The notes beneath the pieces were generated by a model. The model made no database searches and was not told the DNA's origin. It saw only the letters and a program-made list of their open reading frames with translations. A stretch of DNA of 64,000 nucleotides from Escherichia coli (GTDB taxonomy: Bacteria; Pseudomonadota; Gammaproteobacteria; Enterobacterales; Enterobacteriaceae): NCBI RefSeq assembly GCF_003334765.1, contig NZ_QOWT01000008.1, one strand, 5' to 3'. This document shows positions 46,803-46,818 of the stretch, one piece after another. A program made the translations under genes and the position numbers. Each line of letters begins with the position of its first letter. Position 1 is the stretch's first letter.

Positions 46803-46818
46803 AAGCAAACGTTTGCGA
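46803..46818. promoter_or_regulatory. PurR operator (pur box) upstream of purMN
   Basis: aagcaaacgtttgcga contains perfect palindrome gcaaacgtttgc matching the PurR consensus core. Confidence 0.55.

Follow-up and report, generated by a model that had tools for sequence, protein, structure and literature searches.

The purM-upp intergenic region

In the window (the whole 64-kb stretch of E. coli DNA analyzed here), the RefSeq annotation assigns purM and purN to the minus strand, whereas upp, uraA, and hda are encoded on the plus strand. The purM and upp genes are divergent and separated by a spacer of 324 nt, with the start of upp at 47064. Within this spacer lies the 16-mer aagcaaacgtttgcga, whose reverse complement TCGCAAACGTTTGCTT reads along the purM sense strand. 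The original prediction had described a perfect 12-bp palindrome inside this 16-mer, approximately 65-80 nt upstream of the purM GTG on the opposite strand. The palindrome gcaaacgtttgc is indeed exact, and the measured distance from the 16-mer to the annotated purM GTG (46739, minus strand) is 64-79 nt. The features of the purM side are as follows:

45064..45702, minus strand: purN CDS, GAR formyltransferase, second gene of the operon (ORF list and RefSeq annotation)
45702..46739, minus strand: purM CDS, phosphoribosylformylglycinamidine cyclo-ligase, first gene of the operon (RefSeq annotation; GTG kept in the nine-species alignment A1)
46782..46784, minus strand: predicted purM transcription start; leader length about 44 nt (placed by means of the -10 hexamer)
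46790..46798, minus strand: putative extended -10 element of the purM promoter, TGtTAGAAT (assigned by eye; TAGAAT invariant in 9/9 species)
46803..46818, minus strand: PurR operator (PUR box) of purMN, 16 bp (motif identity with Cho 2011, weight matrix, conservation)
46805..46816, strandless: palindromic core GCAAACGTTTGC, 12 bp with a central CpG (sole exact copy in the window)

In the ORF list, purM begins farther upstream, at an in-frame GTG at 46754; this codon is not the annotated purM start, which is the cross-species conserved GTG at 46739. A 1-kb query around the box showed 100% identity to E. coli K-12 MG1655 and matched all 5426 complete E. coli genomes.

On the purM strand, 13 of the 14 specified positions of the 16-mer agree with the PUR box consensus ACGNAAACGTTTGCNT, a 16-bp near-palindrome with a central CpG. 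We also built a PurR position weight matrix (PWM) from 27 motif instances given in Table 1 of Cho 2011, namely all except that of purMN. The leave-one-out score of the purMN box was 17.3 bits (iid p = 7e-7 per site), which ranks 18-19 among the 28 validated sites (leave-one-out scores of 7.4 to 25.2). The PWM scan, which the original prediction had named as a check, thus placed the box within the range of validated sites. The same scan recovered two further published ChIP motifs, that of guaBA (GCGTAACCGATTGCAT, 33797-33812, minus strand) and that of yfgO/yfgC (CCGGAAGCGATTGCCT, 52100-52115, plus strand). Both were found exactly at the predicted positions, which validates the coordinate mapping between the window and MG1655.

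PurR binding at the purMN promoter

In Table 1 of Cho 2011 (PMC3159470), TCGCAAACGTTTGCTT is given as the PurR motif of purM-purN at MG1655 2,619,140-2,619,155. The box is therefore the same object as the E. coli purMN PurR operator of earlier work (He 1990, Meng 1990, Cho 2011), with an identical 16-mer and genomic position and no difference between them. The ChIP-chip log2 enrichment of PurR at purM-purN was 2.08 with adenine and 0.98 without it (Cho 2011, PMC3159470), and these published data on the identical sequence demonstrate both the in vivo occupancy and its rise with adenine. In the same paper, purMN is named among the genes of the IMP pathway that are repressed by PurR-hypoxanthine, and the purR locus of MG1655, which lies outside the window, is included in Table 1. 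Evidence of a different kind comes from a high-copy clone of the purM-upp intergenic region, which titrates PurR; deletion of AAACGTTTGCTT, a part of the box, weakened this effect of the plasmid (Liu 2011, PMC3266220). He et al. 1990 is cited for an in vitro PurR footprint both by PMC3266220 and by the RegulonDB evidence paper, whose cross-validation of PurR sites refers to He 1990 for footprinting, to Liu 2011 for site mutation, and to Cho 2011. Meng et al. 1990 mention purMN in their title, and in a 2024 review purMN serves to illustrate, for E. coli, how PurR blocks RNA polymerase. The assignment of purMN to PurR control in the original prediction is therefore borne out by the adenine-enhanced occupancy and the site deletion, as well as by the PWM score and the conservation of the box.

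On the purM strand, the putative extended -10 element TGtTAGAAT begins 7 nt downstream of the box, and no good -35 element is present there. A sigma-70 consensus scan reported the upp promoter only and missed the purM promoter because of its poor -35. When the -10 hexamer is set at -12 to -7, the transcription start is predicted near 46783, and given this start, the box would span about -35 to -20 with its center near -27.5. Such a center fits the report that the PurR site is located 28 nucleotides upstream of purM (Liu 2011, PMC3266220), and the span fits the general location of PurR sites, between the -35 and -10 elements (Cho 2011, PMC3159470).

These data are best explained by the box being the PurR operator of purMN, at which PurR loaded with its corepressor sits over the promoter and lowers the expression of purM and purN; we assign this reading a probability of about 97%. 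When hypoxanthine or guanine is abundant, the corepressor-loaded dimer of PurR, a member of the LacI/GalR family, would bind TCGCAAACGTTTGCTT over the weak -35/extended -10 promoter and occlude RNA polymerase. This occlusion would reduce the transcription of purM and purN, whose products catalyze the fifth and the third step of de novo IMP synthesis, respectively. Repression is most likely achieved by steric exclusion of RNA polymerase, a mode that we infer, like the start site itself, from the position of the box relative to the -10 element.

The purMN box can be compared with other known PurR sites. The purF operator AAGAAAACGTTTGCGT is the reference PUR box of the structures of PurR-hypoxanthine-DNA complexes (e.g., 1pnr and 1qpz; 2pua and others are also available in the PDB). 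Both sites are 16-bp near-palindromes with a central CpG and an AAACGTTT core, and both lie over a core promoter. The 12-bp core of purMN owes its perfect symmetry to a C at position 4, where purF has A. The outer positions T1 and T15 of purMN are non-consensus, and in the leave-one-out scoring it stays below purF (17.3 compared with 22.0 bits). The xanP site TGGCAAACGTTTGCTT shares the perfect GCAAACGTTTGC core, the 3' TT, and an equal score of 17.3 bits with the purMN box, but serves a xanthine permease gene and has G at position 2 where purMN has C. The intragenic sites of purB and purR involve the same repressor and motif, but they are downstream of the start and act as a roadblock to elongation; unlike them, the purMN box, being located over -35 to -20, should block initiation.

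Conservation of the box and the divergent upp gene

Conservation within E. coli was assessed by megablast of consecutive 30-mers against 5426 complete genomes, using an exact word of 28 nt, so that a single central SNP removes the match. The numbers of genomes with an exact match are listed below:

46766-46795, -10 element and predicted start: 5323/5426
46796-46825, PurR box: 5419/5426
46826-46855, next segment upstream of the box: 3879/5426
46856-46885, second segment upstream of the box: 1577/5426

For the comparison across species, 120 gammaproteobacterial purM loci were collected with a degenerate PurM peptide pattern that takes no account of the box. Each of the 15 loci from Providencia, Moellerella, Vibrio, and Aeromonas had its best PWM match in the 360 nt upstream at 14.4-25.5 bits, compared with 11.45 bits for the 99th percentile of background windows, and the distance from the box to the Tyr9 codon was 88-102 nt, close to the 87 nt of E. 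coli. The 16-mer itself is unchanged in the three Morganellaceae loci. Among the 102 other scorable gammaproteobacterial loci (including Pseudoalteromonas, Halomonas, Marinobacterium, Idiomarina, Rheinheimera, Cellvibrionales, and others), only two had a match above 11.45 bits, and neither had it 88-102 nt from the Tyr9 codon.

Alignment A1 comprises nine species, namely window 46704-46900 together with eight of the collected loci (L009, L104, L071, L082, L013, L046, L092, and L120). Its sole invariant non-coding blocks are CGCAAACG.TT, which belongs to the box, and TAGAAT. In crystal structures, PurR kinks the DNA through minor-groove insertion of its hinge helices at the central CpG, and the invariance of the central CG in the alignment fits this mode of insertion. 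In alignment A1, the box and TAGAAT are 7 nt apart in E. coli, Providencia, and Moellerella, but this gap widens to 17 nt in Vibrio and to 23 nt in Aeromonas, and the operator accordingly shifts from about -35/-20 to about -51/-36 across lineages while remaining beside the promoter. Given these differences in distance to the -10 element, repression does not have one and the same exact geometry in all lineages.

The original prediction had also described the region as a regulatory region shared with upp. It is right that the box and upp share one intergenic spacer; a regulatory role at upp found no support, the upp start region GATTTTTTTTG (47027-47037) being about 217 nt away from the box center. 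The upp promoter occupies 46994-47021 (TTGCCG, a 16-nt spacer, and TATAAT) and is followed by the initially transcribed T-tract GATTTTTTTTG, which serves UTP-sensitive start-site selection and reiterative transcription. An FNR-type site, the 5-4-5 inverted repeat TTGACTAAAGTCAA at 46969-46982, lies 61.5 nt upstream of the upp start (Liu 2011, PMC3266220).

A competing proposal is that the box also governs the divergent upp-uraA operon, with PurR regulating both directions of the spacer. Besides the common 324-nt spacer, this proposal can draw on the divergent upp/purM layout, which is kept in every box-bearing lineage, and on reports in the literature that PurR represses several pyrimidine genes, including codBA, pyrD, carAB, and pyrBI. 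Furthermore, upp and purM are separated by only about 175 nt in Aeromonas and Vibrio plantisponsor (L013, L046, L047, L064, L074, L081, L085, L092, L103, L120, and L071), and the Aeromonas box precedes a putative upp -10 element (TATGAT, with a T-tract after it) by about 41 nt and the putative upp start by about 60 nt. However, the position in Aeromonas is still outside a core promoter, and the E. coli box is far beyond the upp promoter. The behavior of upp is explained by UTP-sensitive start-site selection, reiterative transcription, and the FNR site, and upp is absent from the main text of the PurR regulon paper (Cho 2011, PMC3159470). We therefore consider control of upp-uraA by the box to be very unlikely. 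PurR is a dimer that lacks the tetramerization helix of LacI, so looping is not expected.

A broader possibility is that the box has a second role coupling purine status to pyrimidine salvage via upp-uraA, or that the different gaps (7, 17, and 23 nt) reflect different modes of repression. It appears quite improbable, and a dual role would be most plausible in Aeromonas and some Vibrio, in which the spacer is about 175 nt. Farther downstream, the upp-uraA spacer (47672-47737) gave sub-threshold Rfam matches over about 65 nt (Trp_leader, 26.8 bits; STnc240, 28.1 bits), none of which attains its gathering score. These matches suggest that a hairpin or an attenuator-like structure may be present between upp and uraA.

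Specificity of the motif and chance level

With the box taken as the PurR operator of purMN, its specificity for PurR relative to other members of the LacI/GalR family has to be considered, since a central CG with A/T-rich arms is common to the operators of this family and similar ..AAACGTTT.. cores occur among them. The palindrome could thus be bound mainly by RbsR, GalR/GalS, CytR, or Cra. Among PDB structures, RbsR comes closest to the DNA-binding domain of PurR, and its cross-regulation of purine synthesis has been noted in a review; at purR, according to the literature, GalR occupies sites overlapping the PurR operators. However, none of the 15 regions detected by GalR ChIP-chip is at purM, and GalR arms are of the GTG...TTACA type, whereas those of the box are of the PurR type (GCAAAC and GTTTGC). 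Together with the adenine-dependent occupancy of purM by PurR itself in ChIP-chip, these observations make another regulator of the family a highly unlikely main ligand.

Palindromy alone does not discriminate the box from its surroundings. Perfect 12-bp palindromes of any sequence occur in the 64-kb window at the random rate (15 seen and 15.8 expected), and a search of the whole window for the 12-mer with 2 mismatches showed no enrichment (4 matches compared with 5.9 expected); for the exact 12-mer of the box, 0.004 occurrences are expected per 64 kb. The PWM score alone is only suggestive, or marginal, at the scale of 64 kb. The number of matches with at least 17.3 bits expected on both strands of the whole window ranges from 0.09 (iid) to 0.24 (dinucleotide shuffles), and a site of this strength was present somewhere in 41 of 200 shuffled windows. 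When scaled to the length of the 324-nt purM-upp spacer, the expectation is roughly 0.001 sites this strong. The decisive evidence is promoter context and conservation.

The top PWM match in the window, ACGGCAACGATTGCGC at 48152-48167 (minus strand, 18.1 bits), lies inside uraA codons 126-131 and differs by one mismatch from the yieG/adeP site in the literature; 5421 of the 5426 E. coli genomes match the surrounding 30-mer exactly. It encodes the peptide GAIVAV, which Providencia retains with synonymous changes that drop the motif to 3.7 and -1.1 bits, and it is outside the published PurR ChIP peaks. We thus rejected it as a second operator on account of its position off the ChIP peaks, its coding content, and the loss of the motif in Providencia; it is probably a chance match in coding sequence. 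Two weaker matches were observed as well, ACCGGAACGTTTGCGC at 62543-62558 (minus strand, 13.9 bits) and ACGCGCGCGTTTGCGT at 49687-49702 (plus strand, in hda, 13.4 bits). Both are absent from the published ChIP table, and their scores are within the range of shuffled sequences.

That the purMN box might likewise be a functionless chance palindrome would agree with the random rate of 12-bp palindromes and with the occurrence of PWM matches this strong in about 14-20% of shuffled windows, but this reading is refuted by the published in vivo binding and the deletion phenotype. It is also at odds with the better conservation of the box 30-mer in E. coli than of its three neighbors (far better than of the two further upstream) and with the presence of an orthologous box at a fixed distance in 15/15 loci from three orders, and we give it practically no weight. 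An RNA hairpin or terminator was rejected, as the palindrome is loopless, lies upstream of the predicted start, and is flanked by genes that are both oriented away from it; in a scan of 46000-47800, no Rfam family matched the box.

The purMN operator, known since 1990, is confirmed by ChIP-chip (Cho 2011) and site deletion (Liu 2011), and the present analysis adds no new biology to it. Its use is that of a calibration: a reader without tools recognized a validated transcription factor site from the sequence, with the right coordinates and the right target gene.
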